Assembly: GCA_003169735.1 (NCBI GenBank)
Contig: PNAP01000007.1
Coordinates: 43,738 to 107,737 of the forward strand
DNA from: Chloroflexota bacterium
Lineage (GTDB): Bacteria; Chloroflexota; Limnocylindria; Limnocylindrales; CSP1-4
DNA length: 64,000 nucleotides
Direction: 5' to 3'
Below, one piece after another: positions 30,319 through 46,474 of this stretch. Every line of letters begins with the position of its first letter. The first letter of the stretch is position 1. The notes beneath the pieces are model-generated. The model ran no database searches. It worked only from the letters and a program-made list of their open reading frames with translations, and was not told where the DNA came from. Position numbers and translations under genes: made by a program.

Positions 30319-31059
30319 GTGACTGATCCGACCGCCGATCCCGGGCCGCCGGAACCCGAGGATCTGCCCGACCTGCCCGAGCCGGGCGGCCTCATCTTCG
30401 ACCTCGACGGCACGCTTGTCGATACCGTGCCGGCACGGATCGAGGCGTGGCTCGACACGTTTCGCGAGGTCGGGTTCCCGGCCGACCGCGCCCATCTTGC
30501 CGGCCTCATCGGCGCCGACGGAAAGCGGCTCGCGCGCGAAGTTGCGGAGGTCGGCGGACGGCGTCTCTCGGAGGATCGCGCCGAGGCCATCGATCGGCGC
30601 GCTGGTGAACGCTTCGACGAGATCAGCCTCGATCCGCAGCCGTTGCCCGACGCCATCCTGCTTCTGAGCGCGCTCGGTGCGTCAACCTTGCCGTGGGCCA
30701 TCGCCACGTCGAGCCGAGCGGAGCAGGTGACGGTCTCGATCAAGGCGCTCGGGTTGGCCAACGGACCGCACATCGTCGATGGCAGCCAGGTCACGCAAGC
30801 GAAGCCGGCGCCCGACCTGCTGCTCCACGCGGCCGAGCAGATCGGCGTCGCCAGCCACCGATGCTGGTACGTGGGCGACTCGACCTGGGACATGCGCGCC
30901 GCACGCGCGGCCGGGATGACCGCGCTGGGCGTCTCGACGGGCGCGGCGTCGGCGGATCAGCTGCGCGGCGCCGGCGCCCGCGTGGCGATCAGTTCGCTCG
31001 AAAGGCTGCGGCAGGAATTGCGGCGCCGGGGGCTGGTGGCGGGAAGCGGTTCGGAGTGA
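30319..31059 (+). CDS. HAD-superfamily hydrolase (phosphatase / beta-phosphoglucomutase-like)
   Basis: 'LIFDLDGTLVDT' (DxDGT motif I) and 'VGDSTWDMRAARAAG' (motif IV). Confidence 0.75.
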   Translation: MTDPTADPGPPEPEDLPDLPEPGGLIFDLDGTLVDTVPARIEAWLDTFREVGFPADRAHLAGLIGADGKRLAREVAEVGGRRLSEDRAEAIDRRAGERFDEISLDPQPLPDAILLLSALGASTLPWAIATSSRAEQVTVSIKALGLANGPHIVDGSQVTQAKPAPDLLLHAAEQIGVASHRCWYVGDSTWDMRAARAAGMTALGVSTGAASADQLRGAGARVAISSLERLRQELRRRGLVAGSGSE

Positions 31060-32911
31060 TGCCGGGCAGCGGCTGAACGACGCTCCGTGGCGTCCACAGC
31101 CGGGCCGGAGCGGTCGGCGATTCAGCCGGCATCGGCGCATTCTGGGCGGTCGACATGCCGTGCACGAACGCAGCCACGAGGGTCGGATCGAGTTGGCTGT
31201 CGGACGCATCCTCGAGGCGCACCAGCGCCTCCTTGACCGAGAGTGCCTTGCGGTACGGACGCGTCGTGGTCATCGCCGAGAATGCGTCGGCGACGGCCAG
31301 GATCCGAGCGATGAGTGGGATCTCAGTGCCGGCCAGGCCATCGAGATAGCCGGTTCCGTTCCATTGCTCGTGGTGATGGCGGATGCCGAGGCGGACCTGG
31401 TCGAGATCGGGCAGGTCGCGCACGATCATGTAGCCGAGCGCGACGTGTTGCTTGACCACGCTGTACTCGTCGGGCGTGAGTTTGCCGGGCTTGCGCAGGA
31501 TCTGGTCGGGGATACCGATCTTGCCGACGTCGTGCAGGCGTCCCGCCACGTGGAGCGTGCGCCGCACCGCCGCCGGCAGCCCGAGCCGATCGGCCAGGAA
31601 GACGGCATACCGCGCGACGTCATCGGAGTGGCGCTTGGTGTAGTTGTCCTTGGTGTCGACGGCGATGACCAGGCCCTGGAGGATGTCGAAGCTCTTGCGC
31701 ACGTCGCTCGCCTCGGGCATCGGCTCGGCGAGGCGGACCTTGTCCCCGCCGCCCTGCTTGGCCTGTTGGAGCGCCTGTGTCGCGAGGGAGAGCAACTCGG
31801 TCGCCGCGCGGCCATGTCGCGGATACGCAGCCAGGCCGACGCTGACCGTGACCGGCAGATGCTCCGAGTCACCGAAACGCGGCCCGAAGGCGACGAGCCG
31901 CGTCCGGAGCCGCTCGACCGCCGGCCCGAGATCATGGATGCACGATGCCGGCGTCACGACCAGGAACTCGTCGGGGCCATACCGGCCGATCGCCGTCTCC
32001 TCGGACATCTCGGAGCGCAGCGTACGCGCCACTTCGCGCAGCACCTGGTCGCCGGGATCGTGGCCGTGCGTGTCGTTGAGGCCGCGGAAGTTGTCGACGT
32101 CGATGAGCGCCAGTCCGACGCTCTCGCCAGGAGCGGCGCGCTCCATCTCGGCGTTCAGCCGGGCCACGATGGCGCCGTGGGTGAAGAGCCCGGTCAGGGC
32201 ATCGCGGCGCGTCGACTCGAGCAGTTCGGCGGTCTGGCGCTTGAGCCGCCGATCGGCGCCGCGGAACAGGAAGTACAGGAGGAAGGCCAGGATCGCCCCG
32301 GCGGCGCCGGTCATGAGCAGCACTTCGCGGGTCGTCTTGTCGATCTGGGCGATGATCGCGCCGGCGTCGCGGTAGACCTCGAAGACAGCGACCACGGGAC
32401 CGTCACCGAAGGAGACGGGCAGGTACTCCTCGATGGCCGGACCGTGGCCGATGAGGTCGGGCTCCTCGTCGCTGAAGTCGGTCTTCAGGTCCGAGTGCGG
32501 GATGCCCGCCAGCGCATCCTGAAGGTCGTCTTCGAGTCCGAAGTTGTCGCCGCGCAACTGGGCCTTGTCGGCGAGCAGGACCGTGCCGCTCTTGTCGAAG
32601 ACCTTGATGCGAAAGAGACCGTTTCGGACGAGGACCTGCATCTGCCCTTCGACCTGGGCGATCCGATCCGGTGTCAAGGCATTCGGCTGCAACAGCTCGG
32701 CGGGCGTGAGGTTGGCCTCGGCGAACGCCAGGACCAGCGAGCGGTCGGCCTGGACGGATGAGCCGATGGCGGTATCGCGGACATCGTTCGAGACGACCGT
32801 GGTCAGGGCCACAGCCGTGAAGGCGACGAGCACGAGGCTCACGACGTAGACGACCGCGAGCAACCGGGGCGCCCGGCGCCGAGGGTCGAGCGACGGCATC
32901 CTCATGTGCAC
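30989..32911 (-). CDS. membrane sensor protein with GGDEF (variant 'GPDEF') and HD-GYP domains
   Basis: N-terminal TM plus a periplasmic-like domain, a second TM, a GGDEF domain ('RYGPDEFLVV'), then an HD-GYP domain ('HDVGK...HHEQWNGTGYLDGL'). Confidence 0.8.
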   Translation of the reverse strand: MHMRMPSLDPRRRAPRLLAVVYVVSLVLVAFTAVALTTVVSNDVRDTAIGSSVQADRSLVLAFAEANLTPAELLQPNALTPDRIAQVEGQMQVLVRNGLFRIKVFDKSGTVLLADKAQLRGDNFGLEDDLQDALAGIPHSDLKTDFSDEEPDLIGHGPAIEEYLPVSFGDGPVVAVFEVYRDAGAIIAQIDKTTREVLLMTGAAGAILAFLLYFLFRGADRRLKRQTAELLESTRRDALTGLFTHGAIVARLNAEMERAAPGESVGLALIDVDNFRGLNDTHGHDPGDQVLREVARTLRSEMSEETAIGRYGPDEFLVVTPASCIHDLGPAVERLRTRLVAFGPRFGDSEHLPVTVSVGLAAYPRHGRAATELLSLATQALQQAKQGGGDKVRLAEPMPEASDVRKSFDILQGLVIAVDTKDNYTKRHSDDVARYAVFLADRLGLPAAVRRTLHVAGRLHDVGKIGIPDQILRKPGKLTPDEYSVVKQHVALGYMIVRDLPDLDQVRLGIRHHHEQWNGTGYLDGLAGTEIPLIARILAVADAFSAMTTTRPYRKALSVKEALVRLEDASDSQLDPTLVAAFVHGMSTAQNAPMPAESPTAPARLWTPRSVVQPLPGITPNRFPPPAPGAAIPAAAFRAN

Positions 32912-34137: not shown

Positions 34138-34902
34138 TCAGACCGATCGAGCGGGTGCTCGTCGAAAGACCTCGAGCCAGACCTGGGCCCCGAATTGGTC
34201 CTCGGTCGACTCCCGCACCTCAAGATCACGCTTGGCGCCAGCTTGCTTCAGCCAGTCGAGGTCATGCGCGATCATGCCGCCCGGTCCGCCATCAGGTCCC
34301 TGCCCGACCCAGCTCGCACCGAGGTAGTCGGGTCGCCGCTCGCTGACCGGGACGTACGACGCGAACAGCAGGCCGTCCGTGGCCGCATGCTCGGCGAAGG
34401 AATCGAGCAGTTGCTCGATCTGCGGCTTCGCAGCGTGACTCCACACGCTGCGTGCCAGCACGAAATCGGGTCTGCCTCCGAAGACGCCGACGTTGAACGA
34501 TCGATCATCAGAGAACCGCGGACTCTTGGCTTCCTCCAGACCAGGCTCCAGGATCTCCTTCCGCCCGCCACTGAGGAACTCCTGGCTGGGCTCGATCCCG
34601 TGATAGCCGCCTGGATCGAGGAAGTGGATCAGCCAGTAGCCGGCGCGCAACGTGCCACAACCGACATCGACGACCATCGAGTCCGGCCTCAGGCCGCGCC
34701 GCAGGAGGGCGATGAGTTGCGACCGCCCGTCCTGCTCGAAATGCTCGACCGGGCCACCGAGGAACAGGTGCCCACTGACCGCCTCGGCCCGACGTTGCAG
34801 CGGGCCGTCGAGGGTCCGCACAACGGACGCGGTCGTGGGGCGCGGTCCGTGTCCAGCTCGTCCGGGCGCGAGCATTGTTCGCAGCCTCCGAGTCACGTGC
34901 AC
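34138..34902 (-). CDS. class I SAM-dependent methyltransferase
   Basis: 'VVDVGCGTLRAG' is SAM-binding motif I. The start may be the internal ATG ~34875. Confidence 0.7.
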   Translation of the reverse strand: MHVTRRLRTMLAPGRAGHGPRPTTASVVRTLDGPLQRRAEAVSGHLFLGGPVEHFEQDGRSQLIALLRRGLRPDSMVVDVGCGTLRAGYWLIHFLDPGGYHGIEPSQEFLSGGRKEILEPGLEEAKSPRFSDDRSFNVGVFGGRPDFVLARSVWSHAAKPQIEQLLDSFAEHAATDGLLFASYVPVSERRPDYLGASWVGQGPDGGPGGMIAHDLDWLKQAGAKRDLEVRESTEDQFGAQVWLEVFRRAPARSV

Positions 34903-35008: not shown

Positions 35009-35785
35009 TCACGCGTCGACCACCTCCATCCGGATGCGCTTGTTGATGCGGCCCTTGGATTCGTAGCCGGTGACGTGGATCCGCCCGACCTCGGAGGTAT
35101 TCGCAACGTGCGTGCCACCGTCGGCCTGAAGGTCGAGCCCCTCGATGTCGATGACGCGGATCTCCGAGATGCCCGGCGGCAGCAGGTTGATCTTGGTGCG
35201 GATGAGATCGGGGATGGCGAACGCCTCGTCGCGCGGCAGGACGCGGACGTGGATGGGATGCGCGGCGGCCAGCTCGGCGTTGACACGCGCCTCGATGCTG
35301 CTCACGAGATCGCCCGACATCGACTCGAACTCGAAATCCATCCGGCCACGACCCGGCTCCATGTTGCCGCCCGTGACGAGCGCGCCGTGGTCGCGCCAGA
35401 CGACGCCGCACAGGGCATGCAGCGCGGTATGGGTGCGCATCAACAGGTGACGGCGCGGCCAGTCGATCTCCGCCACGACCGCATCGCCGGCCTGGAGCGC
35501 GGCCGCCGACCCACGTTCCGCCACAGAGGCCGCGATTCGATGGACGATGGCCGGGCCGGCCTTCGCCGCCGATTCGACCGGCCACGAGGGGCTGCCATCG
35601 GCGTCCGCGCGCTGCAACCATCCGTTGTCGGCCGGCTGGCCGCCGCCACCGGGATAGAAGACGGTTCGGTCGAGGATCACCTCAAGGACGCCGTCGTCTG
35701 CCCGGTGCACCGCCTCGACCGTGGCTCGAGTGGAGCGCGCGTACGCGTCTCGATAGCAGATGGCGTCGGTGACCTGATCGCCCAT
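35009..35785 (-). CDS. alanyl-tRNA editing protein AlaX-M (Ser/Gly-tRNA(Ala) deacylase)
   Basis: 'HTALHAL' and 'GGTHV' zinc-binding motifs of the AlaRS editing domain. 258 aa. Confidence 0.8.
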   Translation of the reverse strand: MGDQVTDAICYRDAYARSTRATVEAVHRADDGVLEVILDRTVFYPGGGGQPADNGWLQRADADGSPSWPVESAAKAGPAIVHRIAASVAERGSAAALQAGDAVVAEIDWPRRHLLMRTHTALHALCGVVWRDHGALVTGGNMEPGRGRMDFEFESMSGDLVSSIEARVNAELAAAHPIHVRVLPRDEAFAIPDLIRTKINLLPPGISEIRVIDIEGLDLQADGGTHVANTSEVGRIHVTGYESKGRINKRIRMEVVDA

Positions 35786-36357
35786 CAGGTCTCGATGGTA
35801 AACGAGCCGTGCATCGTCGCGTAGTGGGTCGGGACGGTGCGCGCGAACTGGAGCGAAGCGCTTTCGGCGGTGGCCGTGTACTGGAACTCCTGCACCCCGG
35901 ATTCCCTTGCCGGCACGCCGGGCAGACCGGTCGTGTCGCCCTTCTTGAGGTCGGCGGCCACCCCGTCATGCGTGATCTCGAGCGAGATGGTCTCGGTCAG
36001 GTCGATGACGTTGGCCGCCGGGCTGGGGCTTGGGCTGGGGCTTGGGCTCGGGCTCGGGCTCGGGGTCGGCGAGGTCGATGGGCTGGGCGATGCGGTGGCC
36101 GATGGAGCTGGGCTCGGGCTCGGGGTCGGCGACGGCGATGAGCTGGCCGACGCGGGAGCCGAGGTGGCCGACGGCGACGGGCCGGGACTGGTCGACGAGC
36201 CCGGGCTCGCACCTGCTGAGGCGGTAGCGGCCGGCGTGCCGGTGGGTAACGGGGCGAACGTCCACGTCACTCCAGCCGAGCGGTCCGCGCAGGCGGTCGC
36301 GGCCAGGCAGATCGCGGCGAGGAACGCGAGGCGGATCGGTCGGGTCATCGTGCGCAT
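35785..36357 (-). CDS. Ser/Pro-rich lipoprotein, function unknown
   Basis: Internal start 'MRTMTRPIRLAFLAAICLAATACA' gives a lipoprotein signal peptide. It is followed by a long (SP)n low-complexity linker and an ~80-aa C-terminal domain. Start coordinate is uncertain by about 1 nt. Confidence 0.5.
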   Translation of the reverse strand: MRTMTRPIRLAFLAAICLAATACADRSAGVTWTFAPLPTGTPAATASAGASPGSSTSPGPSPSATSAPASASSSPSPTPSPSPAPSATASPSPSTSPTPSPSPSPSPSPSPSPAANVIDLTETISLEITHDGVAADLKKGDTTGLPGVPARESGVQEFQYTATAESASLQFARTVPTHYATMHGSFTIET

Positions 36358-36412
36358 CCGCGGATATTGCGGCATCCGGCGGGCATGTGATGGCGCGGTC
36401 GCTACGCCTGAC

Positions 36413-39400
36413 TCAGCCGCGGCCCGAACGAAGGGCATCGGCGGCGACCGGCTCATCCGGGACGAGGCCCAGGCGGATGGCCTTGCCGGTGGCCTCGGTG
36501 CGTCCGGCGACGCCGAGTTTGGCGAGGATGCGGCGGACATGGACGCCGACCGTGCGGTCGCTGATGAAGAGACGATCGGCAATCTCGCGATTGGTGCGTC
36601 CTTCGGTCAGTACCTGCAGCACTTCCATCTCGCGTGGGCTCAGCCCGAAAGGGGCGGCGGCGACACGCGTCCCGTCGCTCCCGAACCGCTCCGCGATGGA
36701 GGGCACGCCATCGTCCGCACCCGGACCAACCGGTACGCGTCCGCCCCCGGCTCGCGTCAACGCCGGCCCGCCGAGTGGACGCCGCGCTTCGCGTGCCACC
36801 GGCACGATCACCTTGGGCCTCGCATCCGCGAGCGCCGCCGCCTCGGCGGCGCCGGGCAGGACGATGCGGGCACGACGCGCGAGATCGGCAAGCGCCCAGC
36901 GGAGCGGCGCCGAGGGTAATTCACCGCTGATCTGCCACGCCTCCCGAAGCGGCGCCTGCGCGGCATGCCTGCCGTCGCCCGCCTGCAGGAGTGCCCGCGC
37001 CTGCCACCATCTGGCCTTGGCCTGCTGGTACGGGACCGGTACCGCGGCCCATGCCTCGGCCAGGCGGGCCCACGCCGTTGCGGAGGGCTTGCCTCGAAGT
37101 CTGGCCAGATGTGCGCGTGCCATGTCGAGGTGCAGCTCAGCTTCCCGCCGGGCGCCGAGCGTCGGCGAAAGCGGACTGTCGGCCACGCTGCGCTCGGCGT
37201 CGGCCAGGGTGCGGGCGGCCAGTTCGCCGGCCGTGGCGACGGCGCTGTAATCGCGGCGTTGCCGGCCAGCCTCGGCGAGCGCGACGGCCGCCTCGAGCGC
37301 GGTCGATGACGCCATGGCGATCTGGACGGCTTCGCCCGTCTCGAGCACGCGATCCCACTCCCGGCTTGCGACGGCCACGGCATCGGCGGCTTCGCCGCGC
37401 CACAGCAGCAGGCTGACCGCGGCTCGCAGGACGAGTGCCGTCCACTGGCCGGCCGGGACCTGCTCGAGCTGCAGCAGCGTCTGGCCGACGAGCCGCGTGG
37501 CTTCCTCATCAGCCCGGGATTCGACGAGCACCAGCCCGAGATAGAGGATCGGGCTGAACCAGGGCACGCCGGCCGGCCGGTACGCCATGCCGGCCCGACA
37601 CTCGACCTCCGACTCCGCCCAGCGCCCGAGGTTGAACAGGATGTCTGCCGCGTTGCCGCGCAGGAAGGCGCCGTAGGTATCGCCCGTGCCGGCGGCCCGG
37701 GCATCGCGGATGCCGTCTTTGACGACGCTCAGCGCCTGTTCGCGGCGCGAGTCGAGGTCGAGCAACGTCGTCCGGTTGGCGTACGCGCGCATCAGGTCGT
37801 CGAGGCTGCCGGTCCGGCGCGCGATGTCGGTCGCCTCCTCGAGGAGCGCCAGACCGCGGTCGAGTTGGCCAAGGTAGGCCATGTCCACGCCGAGCGTGCA
37901 CGTCGCGTGCCCGAGTTCGTCGAGCGCGATCGGTTCGGTCGCGCGCGCCACGTCGCACGCCTGGTTGGCGATGCCGGCACTCTCGGCGAAGCTGCCGTCG
38001 AGCATCAGGTGCTGCGCGAGGACGGCCAGGGCGCCGGCGCGAGCCTGACTCGGCGCCTCGTCGATGAGCGCCAGCGCTTCGTGCATGTTCTGGAGCCCAC
38101 CGACGAGATCGCCGCTCGCCCAGCGATACCGACCGAGTCGTTCGTGGAGCACGCCCTGGCGCGTCCGCTCGAGCCGCCGCGTCTCCAGGCGGTCAGCGCG
38201 TTCCTCCGGCGTCCAGGGGCGCTCTCCGGTGGCGGTCCCGACGCGGCGCGGGCGAGCGTCGATGGCCCGCTTGACCAGCGCGGCGGCGCGTCGGAACGAG
38301 CCCGCTGCCGCAGCCGCGGCGCCCGCCGCCACCAGGGTCGCGGTCACATCGGCGAGCGGGTCGGTGCTGTCTGGCGTCGACTCTCCGAGGTCGAGCGCGG
38401 CCTGGTACGAGAAGAGCGCTGTCTCTCCGGGATCGAGTCGCTGCGCTGCGGCAGCCGCGGCAAGGTGCGCGGATCGAGCATCGACCGGTTGGAGTGCCGC
38501 CGTCAGGTGCCACGCCGCTTCGGCGGGCGAAACCTCTCTCGAGAGCGCCACCGCACCGTGCACCGCCTGCCGCTCGGGCGGAAGGCAGAGCGCCTCGATG
38601 GCTTCGGCATACAGCTCATGCGCGATGGCGATGGCATCGCCAGGGCGCTCGACCGCCAGACCGCTCGCCAGCGCGTCATCGAGTGCCTGGCGGTCGAGCC
38701 GGCCTTCGCGCATCGGCAGCGACGTGCAGGCGTGGCGCGGCAATGGACGCCGTACGGCGGCCAGCAGGCGGACCGCGCGCAGTCCGCCAGGCGACAGCGC
38801 ATCGAGACGGGCGGCGAGCACTTCCTCGAACGGGTCGGACAGGCGCATCCCGGCCAGCCGTGCGTGGGCGGTGATGAGCTGCGTGGCCCGCAATGGGTTG
38901 CCGCCCGATCCCTCCATCAGCGCCGCCATGAAACTCCCTGTAGGCCGATCACCGCCCATCTCGAGCGAGATCCTCTGCAACTCGTCGCTGCTGAGCGGCC
39001 CGAGCTCGATGGGATCGAAGCCATCGGCGTTCGCCAGAGCCGCGATGAAGCCGTGCGCCGGGTGGCGGCGATGGAGCGCGTCGGGCTCATAGGTCAGGAT
39101 CAGGCAGATGGGTGATCGCCGACCCATGCCCAGCATCGCATCGATGAAGCGGCGCGTCGCAGGGTCGCTCCAGTGGAGGTCCTCCAGCGCCAGGACCACG
39201 ATGCCGGTCGCGGCGAGGCGCTCCATCGCGCCGAGGATGCTCTCGACGACTCGGTTGCCGAGCTGCGCGACCGAGCTGAGGGCGGGCGGGTCGCGCGGAA
39301 CGGCGAGGTCGTCGAGACGCGGCACGAGGTCCGGCAAGAGGGCGCAGAGATCATGCCCGGCCGGCCCCACGACCGTCGCCAGGCGTTCGTCGGGGAGCGT

Positions 39401-39727
39401 CGCGAGCGCCGTGCGCAGCGCCTGAGCCACCGCGGCGTACGGCTGGCCAGCCTGTGGTTCGTAACCCTGGCCACGTGCCACGAGGACATCGGGCACATCG
39501 GCCAGCCGCGTCTCGAGTTCGTCGAGCAGACTGGAGGCGCCGATGCCCGCCTGTCCCGCAACCAGCACCCGAGTGGCCTCGCCGTCGGACGCCCGTTGGA
39601 TGGCCCGCGCGAGATGGGCCAACTCACGCTCGCGGCCCATGAACGCCATGCGCGCAAGCATACCTGCGGCGGTGCTCGATACTGGAGCCGTGACCCCACC
39701 CTCGGTGCACCCCGACAACGCGCTCAA
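36413..39727 (-). CDS. LuxR-family transcriptional regulator with N-terminal AAA/STAND ATPase (LAL-type)
   Basis: C-terminal 'LTEGRTNREIADRLFISDRTVGVHVRRILAKLG' is a LuxR HTH. N-terminal Walker A 'VLVAGQAGIGASSL'. ~1100 aa with a helical repeat region. The start is possibly at an internal ATG (~39661). Confidence 0.8.
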   Translation of the reverse strand: MSALSGCTEGGVTAPVSSTAAGMLARMAFMGRERELAHLARAIQRASDGEATRVLVAGQAGIGASSLLDELETRLADVPDVLVARGQGYEPQAGQPYAAVAQALRTALATLPDERLATVVGPAGHDLCALLPDLVPRLDDLAVPRDPPALSSVAQLGNRVVESILGAMERLAATGIVVLALEDLHWSDPATRRFIDAMLGMGRRSPICLILTYEPDALHRRHPAHGFIAALANADGFDPIELGPLSSDELQRISLEMGGDRPTGSFMAALMEGSGGNPLRATQLITAHARLAGMRLSDPFEEVLAARLDALSPGGLRAVRLLAAVRRPLPRHACTSLPMREGRLDRQALDDALASGLAVERPGDAIAIAHELYAEAIEALCLPPERQAVHGAVALSREVSPAEAAWHLTAALQPVDARSAHLAAAAAAQRLDPGETALFSYQAALDLGESTPDSTDPLADVTATLVAAGAAAAAAGSFRRAAALVKRAIDARPRRVGTATGERPWTPEERADRLETRRLERTRQGVLHERLGRYRWASGDLVGGLQNMHEALALIDEAPSQARAGALAVLAQHLMLDGSFAESAGIANQACDVARATEPIALDELGHATCTLGVDMAYLGQLDRGLALLEEATDIARRTGSLDDLMRAYANRTTLLDLDSRREQALSVVKDGIRDARAAGTGDTYGAFLRGNAADILFNLGRWAESEVECRAGMAYRPAGVPWFSPILYLGLVLVESRADEEATRLVGQTLLQLEQVPAGQWTALVLRAAVSLLLWRGEAADAVAVASREWDRVLETGEAVQIAMASSTALEAAVALAEAGRQRRDYSAVATAGELAARTLADAERSVADSPLSPTLGARREAELHLDMARAHLARLRGKPSATAWARLAEAWAAVPVPYQQAKARWWQARALLQAGDGRHAAQAPLREAWQISGELPSAPLRWALADLARRARIVLPGAAEAAALADARPKVIVPVAREARRPLGGPALTRAGGGRVPVGPGADDGVPSIAERFGSDGTRVAAAPFGLSPREMEVLQVLTEGRTNREIADRLFISDRTVGVHVRRILAKLGVAGRTEATGKAIRLGLVPDEPVAADALRSGRG

Positions 39728-40607
39728 CGAGCTGCCCGGCGGGGAGTGGCTCTACTTCACCAAGTCGCTCTGGACGACGGCCTACCCGTCCGAATTGGGC
39801 CATGCCGTCCGAAAGGCTCACGGCGCGAACAAGCCGCCGCGGCTGATGGCGCGCCTGATCGAGTTCTTCACGGTGCGGGACGAGCTGGTGCTCGATCCGT
39901 TCGCCGGGGTGGGTGGGACGCTGCTCGGCGCGGCGATCTGCCGGGCTCCGCGACGGTCGCTGGGCATCGAACTCGAGCCGCGCTGGGCCGAGGTCTACGA
40001 GTCCGTCGTGCGCGACGCGTGTGCCGAGCGGGACGGCGCTGGAGCGTTGCTGGCCGACCTGGGCCCGAGCGATCCCGGCGGCACGCGGTCATTCGACCCG
40101 AGTGGCTGCCGGATGGAGGTCGGCGATGCGGTCGAGTCGCTGGCTGCCCTGGCCACCGGGTCGGTCGACTTCGTGGCCACCGACCCGCCCTACAACCCCC
40201 AGCTGCGAATGACGATGTCGGGCGGGAAGCTCTCTGACGCCTTCGCCAATCGGCGGACCGATTACGCGATGGTCACCGACCAGCCGGCCGACCTCGCCAA
40301 CAGCGCCAGCTACGACGAGTATCTCGATCGGATGGAGGCGATCCTGGGCCAGCTGCGGCGGGTCTTGCGCGACGGCCGCTACGCCACGGTCATCGTCCGA
40401 GACGCGTACCAGGACGGCCGCTACCGCTTCACCGGCTCGGATCTTGCCGCGCGCGCCGAACGGCAAGGTTTCGTCACCAAGGGCGACCTCATCTGGTACC
40501 AGGCCGGCACCCGGCTACGACCCTACGGCTACCCTCGCAGTTTCGTGCCCAACATCGTCCACCAGCACATCCTGGTCTTGCGCGCCCATAGCCTCCGGCG
40601 CGGCTAG
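39648..40607 (+). CDS. amino-methyltransferase (N6-A/N4-C DNA methylase-like) with motif I before the DPPY motif IV
   Basis: 'KPPRLMARLIEFFTVRDELVLDPFAGVGGT' is the helper plus motif I region of PF01555-like enzymes. 'SVDFVATDPPYNPQ' is motif IV. The order is permuted relative to beta-class methyltransferases. Start uncertain (ATG 39648 or GTG ~39692). It overlaps divergently with the LAL gene's 5' end. No restriction-enzyme-like gene is nearby. Confidence 0.65.
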   Translation: MRASIPAAVLDTGAVTPPSVHPDNALNELPGGEWLYFTKSLWTTAYPSELGHAVRKAHGANKPPRLMARLIEFFTVRDELVLDPFAGVGGTLLGAAICRAPRRSLGIELEPRWAEVYESVVRDACAERDGAGALLADLGPSDPGGTRSFDPSGCRMEVGDAVESLAALATGSVDFVATDPPYNPQLRMTMSGGKLSDAFANRRTDYAMVTDQPADLANSASYDEYLDRMEAILGQLRRVLRDGRYATVIVRDAYQDGRYRFTGSDLAARAERQGFVTKGDLIWYQAGTRLRPYGYPRSFVPNIVHQHILVLRAHSLRRG

Positions 40608-40642
40608 CCGGAGGCGTGCGCTGATCTGGCGCGGCTAGCCAG

Positions 40643-41842
40643 TCAGCGCAACAGGCTCCGTGGTGCAGGGGAAACCATCAGCCGTTGGCGGAGTGCCGGG
40701 TCGGTCGCCAGGTCGATCGCCGTCCAGGCCATCGCCAGCGCGCCATCGTGGATGGCCTGATCGGCCGCCGCGGAAGCCGCCGCGATGGTGAAGCCACGCT
40801 GGTGGTTGACCGCGGGCAGCGAATCGATGCCGATCATGGGATGGATCGACGGGATGACCTGCGAGATGTCGCCCATGTCGGTCGAGACCGGCCCGAGACC
40901 GGATTCCGCTCCGGGCACGATGGTCCGCCCGAGCGTCTCGGCGTGGACGCGGTAGCGCTCCATGATCCCGGCGTCCTGGACGACGTTGGCGTAACGGACC
41001 CGCGGCTTGACCGCGAGCTGGGCGCCCGTGGCGAGAGACCCGGCCTCGAAACAGTGCATGACGCGCGCCTTGAGTTCGTCCAGCCCTTCCACGTCCGGGG
41101 CACGGACCATGAACAGGCCTTCGGTGTGGGCGGGCACGACATTGGCCGCGTCGCCCCCGTGCGTCACGATACCGTGCACGCGCGTCCCGGCTGGCATGTG
41201 CTGCCGCAGCAGGCCGATGGCAACCTGAGCGACCACGAACGCGTCGGCAGCGTTGATGCCGAGTTCCGGCGCCCCCGCCGCGTGCGCCTCGCGTCCTTCG
41301 AAGCTGACCTCCAGCGTCTGCGCCGCGATGAGTTGCTGATCGATGGTGTCCCGCGGTGCGGGGTGGACCATCATCGCCGCGTGGACGCCGTCGAAGGCGC
41401 CGGCATCCAGCAATCGGATCTTGCCGCCGCCGCCTTCCTCAGCCGGAGTGCCGATGACGGTCACCCGAAGGCCGACGTCGTCCGCGACCGCGGCCAGCGC
41501 CAGCCCGGCCCCGACAGCGGCCGCGGCGATGACGTTATGTCCGCATGCGTGACCGATGACCGGCAACGCGTCGTACTCGGCGACGACCGCGACATGCAGG
41601 GGCCCTGGCCCGAAGCTACCCGCGACGGAGGTCGGCATCTCACCCATCCCGCGCGTGACCTCGAAGCCGGCGCTGGTCAGCCAATCGGCGATCCAACCGG
41701 CGGCCAGCTCCTCCTCGAAGGCGACCTCCGGGTTGGCGTGGATCCAGTGGCTGAGCCCGACGAGCGACGGGTAGGCGGCCTCGACCACGCTTCGCGCCCG
41801 CGCCTGATGGTCGGTCTCCGGTATCGGGTCGGTCTCCGGCAT
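40643..41842 (-). CDS. M20-family amidohydrolase/peptidase (M20D)
   Basis: 'GHACGHN' metal-binding region and an M20 dimerisation-domain layout. ATG at 41842 ('MPETDPIPETD'). Confidence 0.8.
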   Translation of the reverse strand: MPETDPIPETDHQARARSVVEAAYPSLVGLSHWIHANPEVAFEEELAAGWIADWLTSAGFEVTRGMGEMPTSVAGSFGPGPLHVAVVAEYDALPVIGHACGHNVIAAAAVGAGLALAAVADDVGLRVTVIGTPAEEGGGGKIRLLDAGAFDGVHAAMMVHPAPRDTIDQQLIAAQTLEVSFEGREAHAAGAPELGINAADAFVVAQVAIGLLRQHMPAGTRVHGIVTHGGDAANVVPAHTEGLFMVRAPDVEGLDELKARVMHCFEAGSLATGAQLAVKPRVRYANVVQDAGIMERYRVHAETLGRTIVPGAESGLGPVSTDMGDISQVIPSIHPMIGIDSLPAVNHQRGFTIAAASAAADQAIHDGALAMAWTAIDLATDPALRQRLMVSPAPRSLLR

Positions 41843-42091
41843 CGTCCCCCTCGCTATCGGTTCGGCAGGCGCCAAGTATGGGCGTGGCCTGTTGACCGAG
41901 CCGAACACGACGTCGCAAGGCGTCACCGACGCGTGCGAATCACCCCTTGCGCGATGAGATCCATCCGTTACCATGCATGTAGCCATAGTGCCCGAAGCGT
42001 TCGGGCCAAAGACCCGTCCGGCGTCACGACTCACTCCTCTCACGGATCCCGCGAGAACAGTCGCGGGAGCCGGCATGAGAAGGAGTGTTCT

Positions 42092-42541
42092 TTGTTTACG
42101 GATCGCACCCTGACCTGCGCCGACTGCGGGCAGGAATTCACGTTCACGTCGAGTGAACAGCAGTTCTACAGCGATCGTGGGTTCAGTGACCCGCGACGTT
42201 GCAGTTCCTGTCGCGCAAGCCGCAAGGCAGCCCGTGGTGACTCGGGCGGCGGCTTCAGCGGTCGCTCAGGCGGCAGCAGTTACGGCGGCAGCAGCAGCGG
42301 CGGCTACAGCTCGGGCAGTGGCATCGGCGGCGGGTACTCCGCGTCCGGTGGCTACTCGGCCGGCGGTGGCGGTGGCGGCGGCTACGGCGGCGGCAGCGGC
42401 GGTGGGTACCGCGAGCGCGGCCCCCGCGAGATGTTCGAGGCGACCTGCTCCGAGTGCGGCAACACGGCCATGGTGCCGTTCCGCCCGACGAGCGGCAAGC
42501 CGGTCTACTGCAACGATTGCTTCGCCAAGCGTCGCGCGTAG
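42092..42541 (+). CDS. zinc-ribbon (zf-trcl-like CxxC-x17-CxxC) protein with Gly/Ser/Tyr-rich low-complexity centre
   Basis: 'CADCGQEFTFTSSEQQFYSDRGFSDPRRCSSC' and 'CSECGNTAMVPFRPTSGKPVYCNDC' separated by a (GGYS)n tract. TTG start at 42092 with AGGAG 7 nt upstream. Confidence 0.6.
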   Translation: MFTDRTLTCADCGQEFTFTSSEQQFYSDRGFSDPRRCSSCRASRKAARGDSGGGFSGRSGGSSYGGSSSGGYSSGSGIGGGYSASGGYSAGGGGGGGYGGGSGGGYRERGPREMFEATCSECGNTAMVPFRPTSGKPVYCNDCFAKRRA

Positions 42542-43400: not shown

Positions 43401-43790
43401 TCAGCTGATGAGCGGCCGGATGACCTGGAAGATGACCACCAGGACGAGATAGACGATGGGCAGCGAGGCGATCAGCCCGAGGAACCCCGACCACCACGAG
43501 CGGCGCCGCACGCCGGATGCCCCGGTCGGCAGCTCGACCCAGAGGTAGGTCACGACGCTGCCGACGACCATCACGACCAGCACGTAGAGAGCGCCGAGCG
43601 CGGTCCGGAGGTCACCGCCCGGCAGCGCCGTGCCATGCGAGAGCAACACGTCATAGGCGAGCAGCGCCAGGCCACCGACGACAGCTACGCTCAGGTTCGC
43701 GACCACCGCCCGGAAGATCGGCGGCGGCGGGTTGCGCGCCTGCCGCAGCCGGACCTTGAGCCAGGAACGCGGCCGTGGCTCGGTCACGCG
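43401..43790 (-). CDS. small membrane protein (3 TM), hypothetical
   Basis: GTG start overlaps the upstream stop (GTGA). Hydrophobic segments 'LSVAVVGGLALLAY', 'LGALYVLVVMVVGSVVTYLWV' and 'FLGLIASLPIVYLVLVVIF'. Confidence 0.4.
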   Translation of the reverse strand, partial: RVTEPRPRSWLKVRLRQARNPPPPIFRAVVANLSVAVVGGLALLAYDVLLSHGTALPGGDLRTALGALYVLVVMVVGSVVTYLWVELPTGASGVRRRSWWSGFLGLIASLPIVYLVLVVIFQVIRPLIS

Positions 43791-44686
43791 CGATCGTCCG
43801 ATGGAGTGAGGATGGCCAAACCCGGCCGGCGGGGCAGCGAATCGGGCGTGTGACCGGCGAGCACGGCGACCACCTCGGCGAACCGCGTGAGTTCGGCCTC
43901 GGTGTTCCAGAACCCTACGCTGGCTCGGACAGCATCCCGTTCGCCAGCCGATCCCAGGATGGCGAAGACCCTCCGCGACAGCTCCTCCCCGGTCTGTTCG
44001 GCCGTCCAACCGCCGATGGTGAAGGTGACCACCGCAGGCCCGGGTGAGGGCAGAAGGTCGACCCCGTGGACCGCCGCCAGCTCCTCCGAGAGGAGGGCGC
44101 TCAGTCGAGCCGTCCGTTCGTACGCCCACGGCAGCCCGACGAACATCTCGAGCCAGCCGAGGGAGCGGGCGAGACCTAGCAGCGACCGCCGAGGCAGGGT
44201 CGGCGAGTTCGGCCGCTTCGCGTGCCGGCCACGTGCGCCCGGCCGAAGCCACAGAGCGCCGGACCCCTCAGGTCCGAGCAGCCAGCGGTGGCCGTCGAGC
44301 ACCGCCGCATCCACGCTGAGTGCCGTGACGTCGATCGCCTCGACGCCCGCGACATAGCGCAGATCAGCGACCGCGGCACCATCGGGGAGCCAGCGGACCG
44401 CGTCATCCGCGCCGAACATGAGCACGATGTCGTCCGCATCCGCCCCGAGCAGCGCGGCGACGACCGCCCGCGCCTCGGCATCGCGTTGTGCCACGTCCGC
44501 GTCGCGATCCGGTCCGCCGCGGCCGACCTTGAGTTCCCATTCGTCGGCTTCGGCCAGGGCGCGGGCCGTCTCGGCCGGGAACGGGCCGGCCGTGGCCGTG
44601 TCGAGATAGATGCCAGCGCCAGTGGCCGGCAACATCTCGCGGATGTCGGCGACCTTCTCGTCGTCGGTGTGGAGCGGCTCGACCAT
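43784..44686 (-). CDS. aminotransferase class V-like protein (short, possibly degenerate)
   Basis: Recognisable class-V fold segments ('IYLDTATAGP', 'DIVLMFGA'), but only 300 aa and no clear PLP-lysine motif. Confidence 0.5.
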   Translation of the reverse strand: MVEPLHTDDEKVADIREMLPATGAGIYLDTATAGPFPAETARALAEADEWELKVGRGGPDRDADVAQRDAEARAVVAALLGADADDIVLMFGADDAVRWLPDGAAVADLRYVAGVEAIDVTALSVDAAVLDGHRWLLGPEGSGALWLRPGARGRHAKRPNSPTLPRRSLLGLARSLGWLEMFVGLPWAYERTARLSALLSEELAAVHGVDLLPSPGPAVVTFTIGGWTAEQTGEELSRRVFAILGSAGERDAVRASVGFWNTEAELTRFAEVVAVLAGHTPDSLPRRPGLAILTPSDDRA

Positions 44687-44717: not shown

Positions 44718-46409
44718 CTACGTTCCGGCCGTCAGAACGCGGTATCGGCCGCCTTCCTGAAGTTGGTCGTGGAGCGTCGCGACCGTCGAGAGGACATCGA
44801 TCTCGTCGGGGCCCTTGTCGGTACGGATCTGGACGATGCGCGGGAACCGCATCGCGTAGCCCGACGCGTGACGGTTGGAGCGGTGGATGACGTCGAAGGC
44901 GATCTCCACCACGACGCTCGGCTCGACCAGCCGGTAGCGCCCGAACTGGCGGATGGTGTGCGCCTCGAACCAGCGCGTCATCTCGGCGATCTCGGCGTCG
45001 GTCAGCCCGCTGTACGCCTTGCCGATGGTCACGAGCTTGCCGTCCGCGCCGGGTCGATCGTCGCGCACCGCGAACGTGTAGTCGGAGAGAACGCCGTGGC
45101 GCTTGCCGTGGCCGAGTTCCACGCCGACGACCACGCAATCGAGCGTCGTGAGCGGCCGCTTCAGCTTCAGCCACCCGTAGCCGCGGCGACCGGGCGAGTA
45201 GATCGAGTCTGGGTCCTTGACCATCAGCCCCTCGTTGCCCCGTTGCTGGGAGGCAGCGAAAACGGCGCGCAACACCTCCTCGTCCGGGGCGCTGTCCAGT
45301 TGTGCGATGCCGAATCCCGGCGTCGCCGCCAAGTCGAGCGCCTCCAGGCTGGAGCGGCGTTCGCGGAGCGGGAGCCGGAGCAGCGGCTCGATCGGCGCGC
45401 CGTTGCCGGCGCCCAGTGCCAGGACATCGAACGCGACATAGATGACCGGCACCGCGGCCTGGATCTCGGCGCTCGGTTCCTTGCGGCCGAGCCGCGACTG
45501 GAGTCGCAGGAACGGGATCGCCGTGCCATCGCGCCACCCGAGCACCTCGCCGTCGAGGATGCCGTCCCAGCTGAGTGGCGCCGCCGCCCGGATGACCTCC
45601 GGGAACTGGTCGCTGACGTCGTTGAGATCGCGGCTGTACAGGCGGACGGTGCCCCCGGCGCGATGCAATTGCGCGCGGATGCCGTCGTACTTGTCCTCCA
45701 CCCAGACGGGCGTGCCGAGGCGCTCGATGACCTCCGCCTCATCAGCGGCCGGGTGGGCAAGCATCGACTTGAGCGGCCGGAAGAGCGTCAACTCGGCGTC
45801 GGCGAGCGCATCGTCGCGAGCCAGCTCGGCGGTGTGGCCGAGGTCGCCGGTAAGCATCCCCGCCCACTGGACATCCTCTGTCTGGCGACCGAACGCCGCC
45901 GCGATGGCCGCTTCGAGGTGGCCCTCTCGAAGCCCGATGCGCAGCTCTCCGGACAGGATCTTGGCCACGTACCGCGCGGTCAACGGATCGCACCGCGCGA
46001 GCAGTTCGCGCAGGACGGCCGACTTGGCAGCGGGTCCACGGGCCTCGGCGATGGCGGTGAAGGCGGCGGCGACCTCGGGCACCGTCGGCGGCGTTCCCGC
46101 CGGTTCGTGGCCGGCCTCCGCCAGCAGGTCGCCGACCGCCTGGCCGAGGTCGGACGATCGATCGTAGGCGGCACCGAGCGCGCCATCGGGAGCGTTCGCG
46201 ATCTCCTCGGCGACCCGGCCAAGGGCGGACCAGCCGAGACCGGTCGTGCGCTGGTCTCGCTCGGGAAACGCGCGACCCGTCATGAACGTTGCGGCCGGCG
46301 GCAGCACGTCCCGGTCAAGCGTGGCGAGATACGCCGCGAGCGTCGTGACCTTGACCGAGGTCCTGCTCGTGGCGCCGATGGCTTCGGCGGTCTCGCTCCA
46401 GCGTCGCAT
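44718..46409 (-). CDS. ATP-dependent DNA ligase
   Basis: 'VEDKYDGIRAQ' is the adenylation KxDG motif, with downstream OB-fold motifs. Start taken at 'MRRWSETAEAIG'. Confidence 0.85.
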   Translation of the reverse strand: MRRWSETAEAIGATSRTSVKVTTLAAYLATLDRDVLPPAATFMTGRAFPERDQRTTGLGWSALGRVAEEIANAPDGALGAAYDRSSDLGQAVGDLLAEAGHEPAGTPPTVPEVAAAFTAIAEARGPAAKSAVLRELLARCDPLTARYVAKILSGELRIGLREGHLEAAIAAAFGRQTEDVQWAGMLTGDLGHTAELARDDALADAELTLFRPLKSMLAHPAADEAEVIERLGTPVWVEDKYDGIRAQLHRAGGTVRLYSRDLNDVSDQFPEVIRAAAPLSWDGILDGEVLGWRDGTAIPFLRLQSRLGRKEPSAEIQAAVPVIYVAFDVLALGAGNGAPIEPLLRLPLRERRSSLEALDLAATPGFGIAQLDSAPDEEVLRAVFAASQQRGNEGLMVKDPDSIYSPGRRGYGWLKLKRPLTTLDCVVVGVELGHGKRHGVLSDYTFAVRDDRPGADGKLVTIGKAYSGLTDAEIAEMTRWFEAHTIRQFGRYRLVEPSVVVEIAFDVIHRSNRHASGYAMRFPRIVQIRTDKGPDEIDVLSTVATLHDQLQEGGRYRVLTAGT

Positions 46410-46474
46410 CGTCGGATGGTAGTCGCGGGCGGCGGGGCGGCGGGGTAGCATCCGAGGCACATGCCCAGCACGCC

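Follow-up and report, generated by a model that had tools for sequence, protein, structure and literature searches.

A gene at 39690-40607 (+ strand) in a stretch of 64,000 nucleotides from contig PNAP01000007.1 of a Chloroflexota bacterium of the class Limnocylindria (this whole stretch being referred to here as the window) appears to specify an orphan DNA methylase in which the two halves of a beta-class enzyme occur in swapped order. We favour a joint reading, to which we assign a probability of roughly 0.7, in which the protein is an S-adenosylmethionine (AdoMet or SAM)-dependent DNA amino-methyltransferase, producing N6-methyladenine or N4-methylcytosine, of permuted beta type, encoded by a leaderless core gene of the Limnocylindria and serving a housekeeping or regulatory role. 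The AdoMet-binding half of the chain (motifs X and I to III) comes first, followed by a linker of about 36 residues and then by the catalytic half (motifs IV to VIII). The family at large resides in phages and in cassettes resembling restriction-modification (R-M) systems; its Limnocylindria clade has become a vertically inherited, strongly constrained chromosomal gene. The leaderless mRNA would originate from a promoter with a -10 element only, lying back-to-back with, and overlapping, the promoter of a gene for a LAL-type regulator. The enzyme would carry out genome-wide housekeeping or regulatory methylation, of the kind performed by CcrM, Dam and CamA, and not defence. The idea of an orphan regulatory methylase had been put forward among others in an initial annotation of the window, made from the letters of the sequence, and is now the leading one.

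The open reading frame (ORF) listed in that annotation, 39543-40607 on the + strand, exists and is open; in its longest form it comprises 354 amino acids (aa), in a window of about 69% G+C. Relatives were sought in the GTDB species-representative genomes. The search returned 245 stretches encoding a relative. Close homologues are 295-300 aa long and have their N-terminus at 'VHPDN'. In 73 of 82 related loci, an in-frame ATG or GTG follows, at a distance of 5-8 nt, a conserved -10-like hexamer, which reads GATACT or CATACT in near relatives and TAGGCT or TACGCT in the far clade. The distance from the start to the conserved HP codon varies between 1 and 21 codons across related loci, indicating that it is the hexamer-plus-start module that forms the conserved unit. 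The lengths of the homologues and the conservation of this module place the start of the methylase at GTG 39690 and rule out ATG 39543, the start of the longest ORF. A frameshift, raised as a concern in the initial annotation, was looked for and ruled out along with a pseudogene, since the gene is intact and homologues align with it full-length (residues 6-304). The re-annotated gene and the segments of its product are:

39690..40607, + strand: methyltransferase coding sequence (CDS) as re-annotated, with a GTG start, 305 aa and a TAG stop at 40605-40607.
39708..39776, + strand: family-specific N-terminal segment HPDNALNELPGGEWLYFTKSLWT, residues 7-29, counterpart of the strand after the target recognition domain (TRD) in beta-class enzymes.
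39819..39923, + strand: helper/motif X (HGANKPPRLMARLIEFF) and motif I AdoMet-binding loop (LVLDPFAGVGGTL), residues 44-78, corresponding to positions 141-217 of the PF01555 profile.
39999..40106, + strand: linker between the former C- and N-termini, residues 104-139 (about 36 residues).
40047-40106, + strand: clade-specific conserved linker insertion LLADLGPSDPGGTRSFDPSG, kept in Limnocylindria sequences.
40161..40196, + strand: motif IV catalytic block SVDFVATDPPYN, residues 158-169.
40488..40583, + strand: motif VIII-like strand and family-specific C-terminal signature LIWYQ...PYGYPRSFVPNIVHQHILVLR, residues 267-298.

The sequence identifies the methylase as a beta-class N6A/N4C enzyme in circularly permuted form. 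The Pfam profile N6_N4_Mtase (PF01555), which the precomputed annotation lists for every methylase homologue shown, matched the protein at 75.5 bits (cut-off 26.7; E 7.4e-21) as two separate stretches, the best of which aligned residues 74-150 with positions 141-217 of 221, that is, with the C-terminal part of the profile. Alignment with TTHA0409 (2zie) was obtained in swapped order, residues 62-152 of the query falling on 190-273 of the chain (helper and motif I) and residues 190-320 on 23-138 (the SPPY/DPPY region); the alignment with CcrM (6pbd) was swapped likewise. When the protein was re-permuted in silico by a cut within the linker (residues 132-305 followed by 1-131), the two PF01555 stretches seen with the native residue order became one contiguous match, covering profile positions 1-217 (E 6.6e-22). 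Together, the swapped matches and the contiguous match after re-permutation show that the permutation relative to the beta class is real, as the initial annotation had proposed from the motifs. A search of NCBIfam returned only sub-threshold matches, to CcrM and other beta-class models.

The motifs themselves are laid out as first described: the helper and motif I block, 'KPP..L...I.F.....LVLDPFAGVGGT', lies in the N-terminal half of the protein and the 'S.DFV.TDPPYN' block in the C-terminal half, and 94 residues separate motif I (residue 71) from DPPY (residue 165). The former block aligns with 212-282 of 2zie and 192-253 of CcrM; D69, P70, F71, G73, G75 and T77 are invariant in the motif I region, as is H44 on the N-terminal side. 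The motif IV block, in which P166, P167 and Y168 are invariant, aligns with the N-terminal DPPY/SPPY motif of the same two enzymes (22-59 of 2zie, 19-95 of CcrM). Conservation extends beyond these blocks. P278, Y279, G280, Y281, P282, V286, P287, N288 and Q292 are invariant across subfamilies, and N10, N13, W20, T24, S26 and W28 show no variation between the Limnocylindria clade and a cassette-linked clade from Gammaproteobacteria (see below). The linker insertion, LLADLG.SDPGG.R.FDPSG, is conserved in Limnocylindria and absent from the subfamily having SPPY at motif IV. The chain starts about 40 residues ahead of motif X and ends 7 residues past the 'HQHILVLR' strand. By these alignments, it begins and ends where beta-class enzymes carry the TRD, and a domain-size TRD is lacking. 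No extra domain was seen in an AlphaFold model of the protein, which has a confident core (predicted template-modelling score, 0.80; predicted local distance difference test score (pLDDT), 75). In the model, the linker forms a helix and a loop, with the clade-specific insertion mostly in the loop (pLDDT ~71), and the C-terminal region contributes two strands (E261-272 and E290-299).

The methylase shares with beta-class enzymes (2zie TTHA0409, 6pbd CcrM, 1boo M.PvuII, 1eg2 M.RsrI) homology in both halves and the same Rossmann core. Common to them are helper/motif X, the FxGxG of motif I, the (D/S)PPY of motif IV, a motif VIII-like 'IW.Q' strand and a long loop after motif IV with the signature 'DLGN..Y..FL'. 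It departs from them in that the order runs from I to IV and not from IV to I, the chain is cut at the TRD site and a linker of 36 residues connects the old termini. The beta-class order in the scheme of Malone (IV-VIII, TRD, X, I-III) is thus recovered only by artificial re-permutation, and the TRD that should stand between motifs VIII and X is not present; nor does the methylase possess the C-terminal DNA-binding domain of CcrM.

A topology of this type has been described as class E by Samokhina and Alexeevski (bioRxiv 10.1101/2023.12.13.571470): the catalytic motif follows the SAM motif by less than 100 aa with no TRD between them, and the members, such as M1.BcnI and M4.BstF5I, are found by class B/D (beta/alpha-type) profiles. 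In the methylase, the SAM motif comes first, the catalytic motif follows after the 94 residues mentioned above and no TRD intervenes; its detection was through PF01555 and beta-class PDB sequences, the profiles of the class E authors being those of SUPFAM. The sequence fits the published class E topology, the comparison being with the description of the class and not with the sequences of its type members. Like class E, the methylase has no inserted TRD and presumably achieves recognition via loops. According to a passage in PMC3874165, Bujnicki proposed in 2002 some minor permuted classes that descend from beta enzymes, exemplified by M.MwoI (delta) and M.TvoORF1413P (zeta). The examples named for these classes and for class E are methylases of type II or IIS R-M systems, whereas the methylase is encoded by an orphan gene belonging to the core set of a single bacterial class. 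The type II methylase model PDLC03284 of PADLOC is colinear with the methylase (residues 10-299 against 62-357 of 361, E 2.9e-43), and two other models, PDLC03391 and PDLC03363, match a distant family member colinearly. Presumably, these MTase_II models derive from catalogued R-M methylases. To regard the permuted order as unprecedented would be an overstatement, since the colinear PADLOC models, class E and the minor classes of 2002 already describe the arrangement. The permuted architecture is rare and already catalogued; what is new is its conservation throughout a bacterial class and its fixed, head-to-head and apparently leaderless pairing with a LAL gene. A natural and evolutionarily successful beta-type methylase that is permuted and TRD-less also bears on how DNA is recognised and on the need for dimerisation, which class beta enzymes are thought to require (PMC7544214).

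The substrate of the enzyme is most likely DNA rather than RNA, to judge from its profile matches and its relatives. When a family profile was compared with the PDB, the top match was TTHA0409 (2zie), at 3e-34 in three swapped pieces, ahead of N4CMT (1e-18) and CcrM (8e-18); further matches were to DpnA, PvuII, RsrI and MboIIA and then to Trm11 (5e71, 9e-8) and the UPF0020 protein 8vyd, an m4,2C rRNA synthase (3e-6). The main rival explanation is that the protein methylates an exocyclic amine of rRNA or tRNA (yielding N2-methylguanosine (m2G), N4-methylcytidine (m4C) or N6-methyladenosine (m6A)) as a lineage-specific modifier of the translation apparatus evolved from a DNA-methylase ancestor. 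We consider this unlikely. It is true that the RNA m2G enzymes of the UPF0020 group, Trm11, TrmN, Trm14 and RlmL, have the same motif order (X, I, then IV) with a DPPY-type motif, that the best colinear structural superpositions of the model were with Trm11, TrmN and Trm14, and that weak matches were obtained to TIGR01177 (25 bits versus 316 required, E 1e-5) and to Pfam UPF0020 (PF01170; E 1e-3). The lack of a TRD and the very high class-wide conservation (73-83%) can be cited in the same sense. However, similarity to DNA methylases is stronger by about 25 orders of magnitude (3e-34 versus 9e-8), the UPF0020 score, 19 bits, falls under the curated cut-off of 22.3 with no stretch passing alone, and no THUMP, PUA or other RNA-binding domain was matched in the methylase. 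The initial annotation had allowed for a standard RNA m2G or HemK-type enzyme with the order I to IV; the structural superpositions approach this weakly, whereas the sequence profiles place the methylase far closer to the beta-class DNA methylases. A protein methyltransferase using a (D/N)PPY pocket, whether HemK/PrmC-like and acting on glutamine N5 or directed to lysine, seems very improbable: no HemK/PrmC sequence match appeared in the Pfam, NCBIfam or PDB profile searches, the structural score is typical for any class I methyltransferase, and the motif is DPPY and not the NPPY typical of HemK-type enzymes.

The relatives of the methylase point in the same direction. A scan of 1.84 billion representatives gave 123 clusters at E<=1e-30, many of them colinear over residues 6-299 with 35-45% identity. 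The SPPY subfamily (35% identical), found in Shewanella, Aliikangiella and Idiomarina, is part of a two-methylase cassette that contains, in order, an ORF of 61-63 aa, the permuted methylase, a canonical N6_N4 methylase of 252-260 aa and convergent genes without a family match, in which no nuclease family was matched; the cassette adjoins integrases in two of the three genomes examined. This subfamily is itself 63-84% identical across unrelated hosts, suggesting that high identity is a property of the family and not the sign of an RNA target. Full-length colinear relatives are carried by about 25 IMG/VR viral contigs and by six GenBank phages, in which all but one, a 'hypothetical protein', are annotated as DNA methylase, and the model has a full-length match in a viral protein of BFVD (TM 0.71, 32% identity). 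Still other members exist as fusions, with HTH_3, with HTH_17, with a D12 Dam-type methylase or with a complete LexA that comprises both the DNA-binding domain and the S24 peptidase. The occurrence of sister clades in phages, in cassettes and as fusions with DNA-binding or Dam domains, together with profile matches dominated by DNA methylases, argues for a DNA substrate and against the RNA alternative. Moreover, since the family-specific non-catalytic residues are identical in the cassette-linked and the Limnocylindria clades, both presumably act on the same class of substrate. With no large TRD, recognition of DNA would have to come from the short N- and C-terminal family-specific segments and from loops. 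As for the base, N4-cytosine enzymes more often have SPPY or SPPF, and N6-adenine enzymes DPPY, with exceptions; the DPPY of the methylase mildly favours N6-adenine.

Some members of the wider family showed peculiarities of their own. In the Aliikangiella and Idiomarina cassettes (L006:7815-10503 and L007:7647-10320, both on the - strand), the convergent pair lies next to integrases and consists of a 335-aa 4Fe-4S ferredoxin-type protein and a 557-562-aa protein without a family match, while a single 420-aa protein, again without a match, takes the place of the pair in Shewanella (L004, 7808-9070). The Fe-S protein would be an unusual candidate for a restriction component. Fusions to LexA, D12 Dam-type, XRE or HTH_17 domains were found in P0236, P0166, P0217, P0240 and P0195; fusion to LexA would couple the methylase to SOS-type self-cleavage. 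P0166 and P0173 have 'DVPYW' at motif IV instead of (D/S)PPY, the second proline of the catalytic tetrapeptide being replaced. Finally, P0207 (521 aa) contains the permuted domain as a tandem duplicate, with motif I ('VLDSTCHD') and motif IV ('VRPSISF') degenerate in copy 1 and copy 2 intact, and a PF01555 match with the canonical order of the beta class runs across the junction of the copies (residues 144-334 against profile 20-221). P0207 resembles the duplicated intermediate postulated for circular permutation, or else a fused pseudo-dimer of an inactive and an active copy.

The best 80 of the 245 stretches all come from metagenome-assembled genomes (MAGs) labelled Chloroflexota or Limnocylindria, and their methylases are 73-83% identical to that of the window. 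Mean identity to the window protein is 77% for the methylase versus 47% (range 31-65) for the adjacent regulator; the corresponding ranges are 53-72% for an M20 peptidase, 37-73% for an aminotransferase fragment and 62-77% for a ligase. The methylase is far better conserved than its neighbours. Besides the LAL regulator and the three proteins just named, the neighbouring genes specify a class I methyltransferase, a zinc-finger protein, an AlaX-like protein and a bactofilin. The flanks of the methylase gene, to about 8 kb on either side, are free of nuclease, specificity-subunit and mobile-element genes; the cognate endonuclease that would mark a type II R-M system was thus not found, and the context is nuclease-free in relatives as well. 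A PADLOC search for defence systems gave generic MTase_II matches for the methylase and weak helix-turn-helix (HTH) matches for the regulator. The orphan status and the lack of an adjacent nuclease or specificity partner, both stated in the initial annotation, are therefore upheld. Genes downstream of the methylase vary between subclades; the divergent LAL gene is constant.

A solitary methylase could also be related to defence, either as the leftover of a decayed R-M system or as a protection against restriction by resident or incoming elements, in which case it would have no regulatory role and the proximity of the LAL gene would be coincidental synteny. The wider family is indeed typical of mobile R-M-like cassettes and phages, and the best-matching PADLOC models are classed as type II methylases. 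Yet neither mobile-element genes nor a nuclease are found nearby, the chromosomal context is kept across species, purifying selection on the methylase is stronger than on all its neighbours, and in at least 80 species the gene is found at the same syntenic position, whereas R-M remnants are normally patchy and decay fast. On balance, we hold a defence-related function to be quite improbable.

The constant partner of the methylase gene and the region between the two genes comprise the following elements:

36413..39649, - strand: LAL-type regulator with an AAA_16 STAND ATPase domain (1.8e-22) and a C-terminal LuxR/GerE HTH domain (3.1e-19), 1078 aa as re-annotated.
39678..39683, + strand: -10-like hexamer GATACT, putative methylase promoter, 6 nt upstream of GTG 39690.
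39657..39662, - strand: -10-like hexamer TATGCT, putative leaderless LAL promoter, 7 nt upstream of ATG 39649 ('MAFMGRERELA').

In 70 of the 77 loci with enough flanking sequence, no more than 300 bp separate the methylase from the N-terminus of a divergent LAL regulator upstream. In the other seven (L020, L043, L063, L064, L075, L078 and L082) the regulator is 0.5-2.8 kb away, something having been inserted between the two genes. TATGCT or TATCCT precedes the ATG of 'MAF[VIL]GRERE' by 6-8 nt in 56 loci, TAGAAT being used in the distant clade; the head-to-head layout thus recurs in that clade with different hexamers. Both start codons could be located in 51 loci; in 41 of these the distance between them is 38-40 bp, and in the window it is 40 bp. 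The -10 boxes are separated by about 15 bp, so that each stands at the place of the other's -35. Five loci (L067, L073, L076, L080 and L087) carry an insertion of 50-60 bp between the two boxes. The tight divergent control region shared with a LAL/STAND regulator, as initially described, is thus confirmed. The accompanying overlap of the two coding sequences was an artefact of using the longest ORFs, 40 bp separating GTG 39690 from ATG 39649. The interdigitating promoters deduced from that overlap survive in modified form, on the basis of the conserved hexamers: the 38-40 bp spacing of the start codons and the presence of a conserved hexamer before each suggest that the two putative promoters probably overlap. 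Likewise, transcription of the methylase from the putative -10-only promoter is probably leaderless. No palindrome that might serve as a candidate target site was evident by eye between the -10 boxes, and the hexamers differ between clades.

Conserved adjacency and spacing are what suggests a functional coupling between methylase and regulator. To our knowledge, the conserved head-to-head pairing with a LAL gene has no counterpart in the CcrM, Dam and CamA systems, and an apparently leaderless arrangement confined to 38-40 bp offers a compact case for the study of promoter interference or co-regulation. One can envisage the two genes as a conserved epigenetic module in which the promoters overlap fully and RNA polymerase uses one at a time, the STAND regulator sets the level of the methylase in response to a ligand, and methylation of the shared 40-bp region could bias the choice of promoter. 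This scheme, which we regard as rather doubtful, would imply that a methylation state that is bistable or depends on a signal has been kept throughout a bacterial class.

Our analysis makes genome-wide housekeeping or regulatory methylation the most likely role of the enzyme, because no restriction partner accompanies the gene and because the gene is kept class-wide back-to-back with the LAL regulator. CcrM in Alphaproteobacteria, Dam in Gammaproteobacteria and CamA in C. difficile are similarly solitary, taxon-wide, located at one chromosomal site and under strong constraint; the Limnocylindria gene, solitary and taxon-wide at its syntenic site, conforms to this pattern. The methylase differs from all three in being permuted and TRD-less and in that its role is proposed from sequence. 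All C. difficile genomes examined contain CamA, which is rare elsewhere among bacteria (PMC8187626).

Several points weigh against the reading of the methylase as a regulatory DNA methylase. A literature search for Limnocylindria methylomes retrieved none, and activity, base and motif are predicted ones. The protein has no recognisable TRD or DNA-binding domain. Confidence in the AlphaFold model is moderate, the loop after DPPY and the PYGYP loop having pLDDT values below 50. The promoters were assigned from -10-like hexamers, while a scan of 39400-40800 for the sigma-70 -35/-10 consensus and for intrinsic terminators found nothing, and no -35 consensus emerged. The conserved adjacency to the LAL gene could be inherited synteny without functional coupling. 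Lastly, the designation of the gammaproteobacterial cassettes as 'restriction-modification' is itself our interpretation. If the proposed role is correct, the methylase would represent a candidate housekeeping epigenetic system outside Proteobacteria. Limnocylindria, a class of uncultured soil Chloroflexota, are abundant, and in these data they appear as MAGs only. From a strongly constrained orphan methylase kept class-wide, one would expect a single methylation motif common to all of them, and such a motif could be put to practical use in methylation-based binning of long-read metagenomes.

Other features in the vicinity of the methylase and regulator genes are:

30989-32911, - strand: protein with GGDEF and HD-GYP-type (HD_5) domains, a cyclic-di-GMP turnover enzyme.
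34138-34902, - strand: class I SAM methyltransferase (Methyltransf_12/23/25), unrelated to the permuted methylase and 4-5 kb upstream of it.
35009-35785, - strand: protein with an AlaX-like tRNA-editing domain (tRNA_SAD), also 4-5 kb upstream of the methylase.
35785-36582, - strand: ORF with a lipoprotein-like signal ('MTRPIRLAFLAAICLAATACADRS') followed by a Ser/Pro/Thr/Ala-rich low-complexity tract (SPSPSPSP...), without a Pfam match.
42080-42541, + strand: small protein with two treble-clef zinc fingers (zf_Tbcl, zf_Tbcl_2) separated by a Gly/Ser/Tyr-rich low-complexity linker.
43784-44686, - strand: 300-aa protein whose match to the aminotransferase class V profile is confined to the profile's C-terminal half (182-371 of 371).
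44718-46460, - strand: three-domain ATP-dependent DNA ligase, with the aminotransferase fragment directly downstream.

In its longest form, the ORF at 35785-36582 overlaps the 3' end of the regulator gene, probably as a result of a start-codon artefact; in L001, the gene at the equivalent position gives cupredoxin/copper-binding matches. The pair formed by the ligase and the aminotransferase fragment is kept in many of the related loci.

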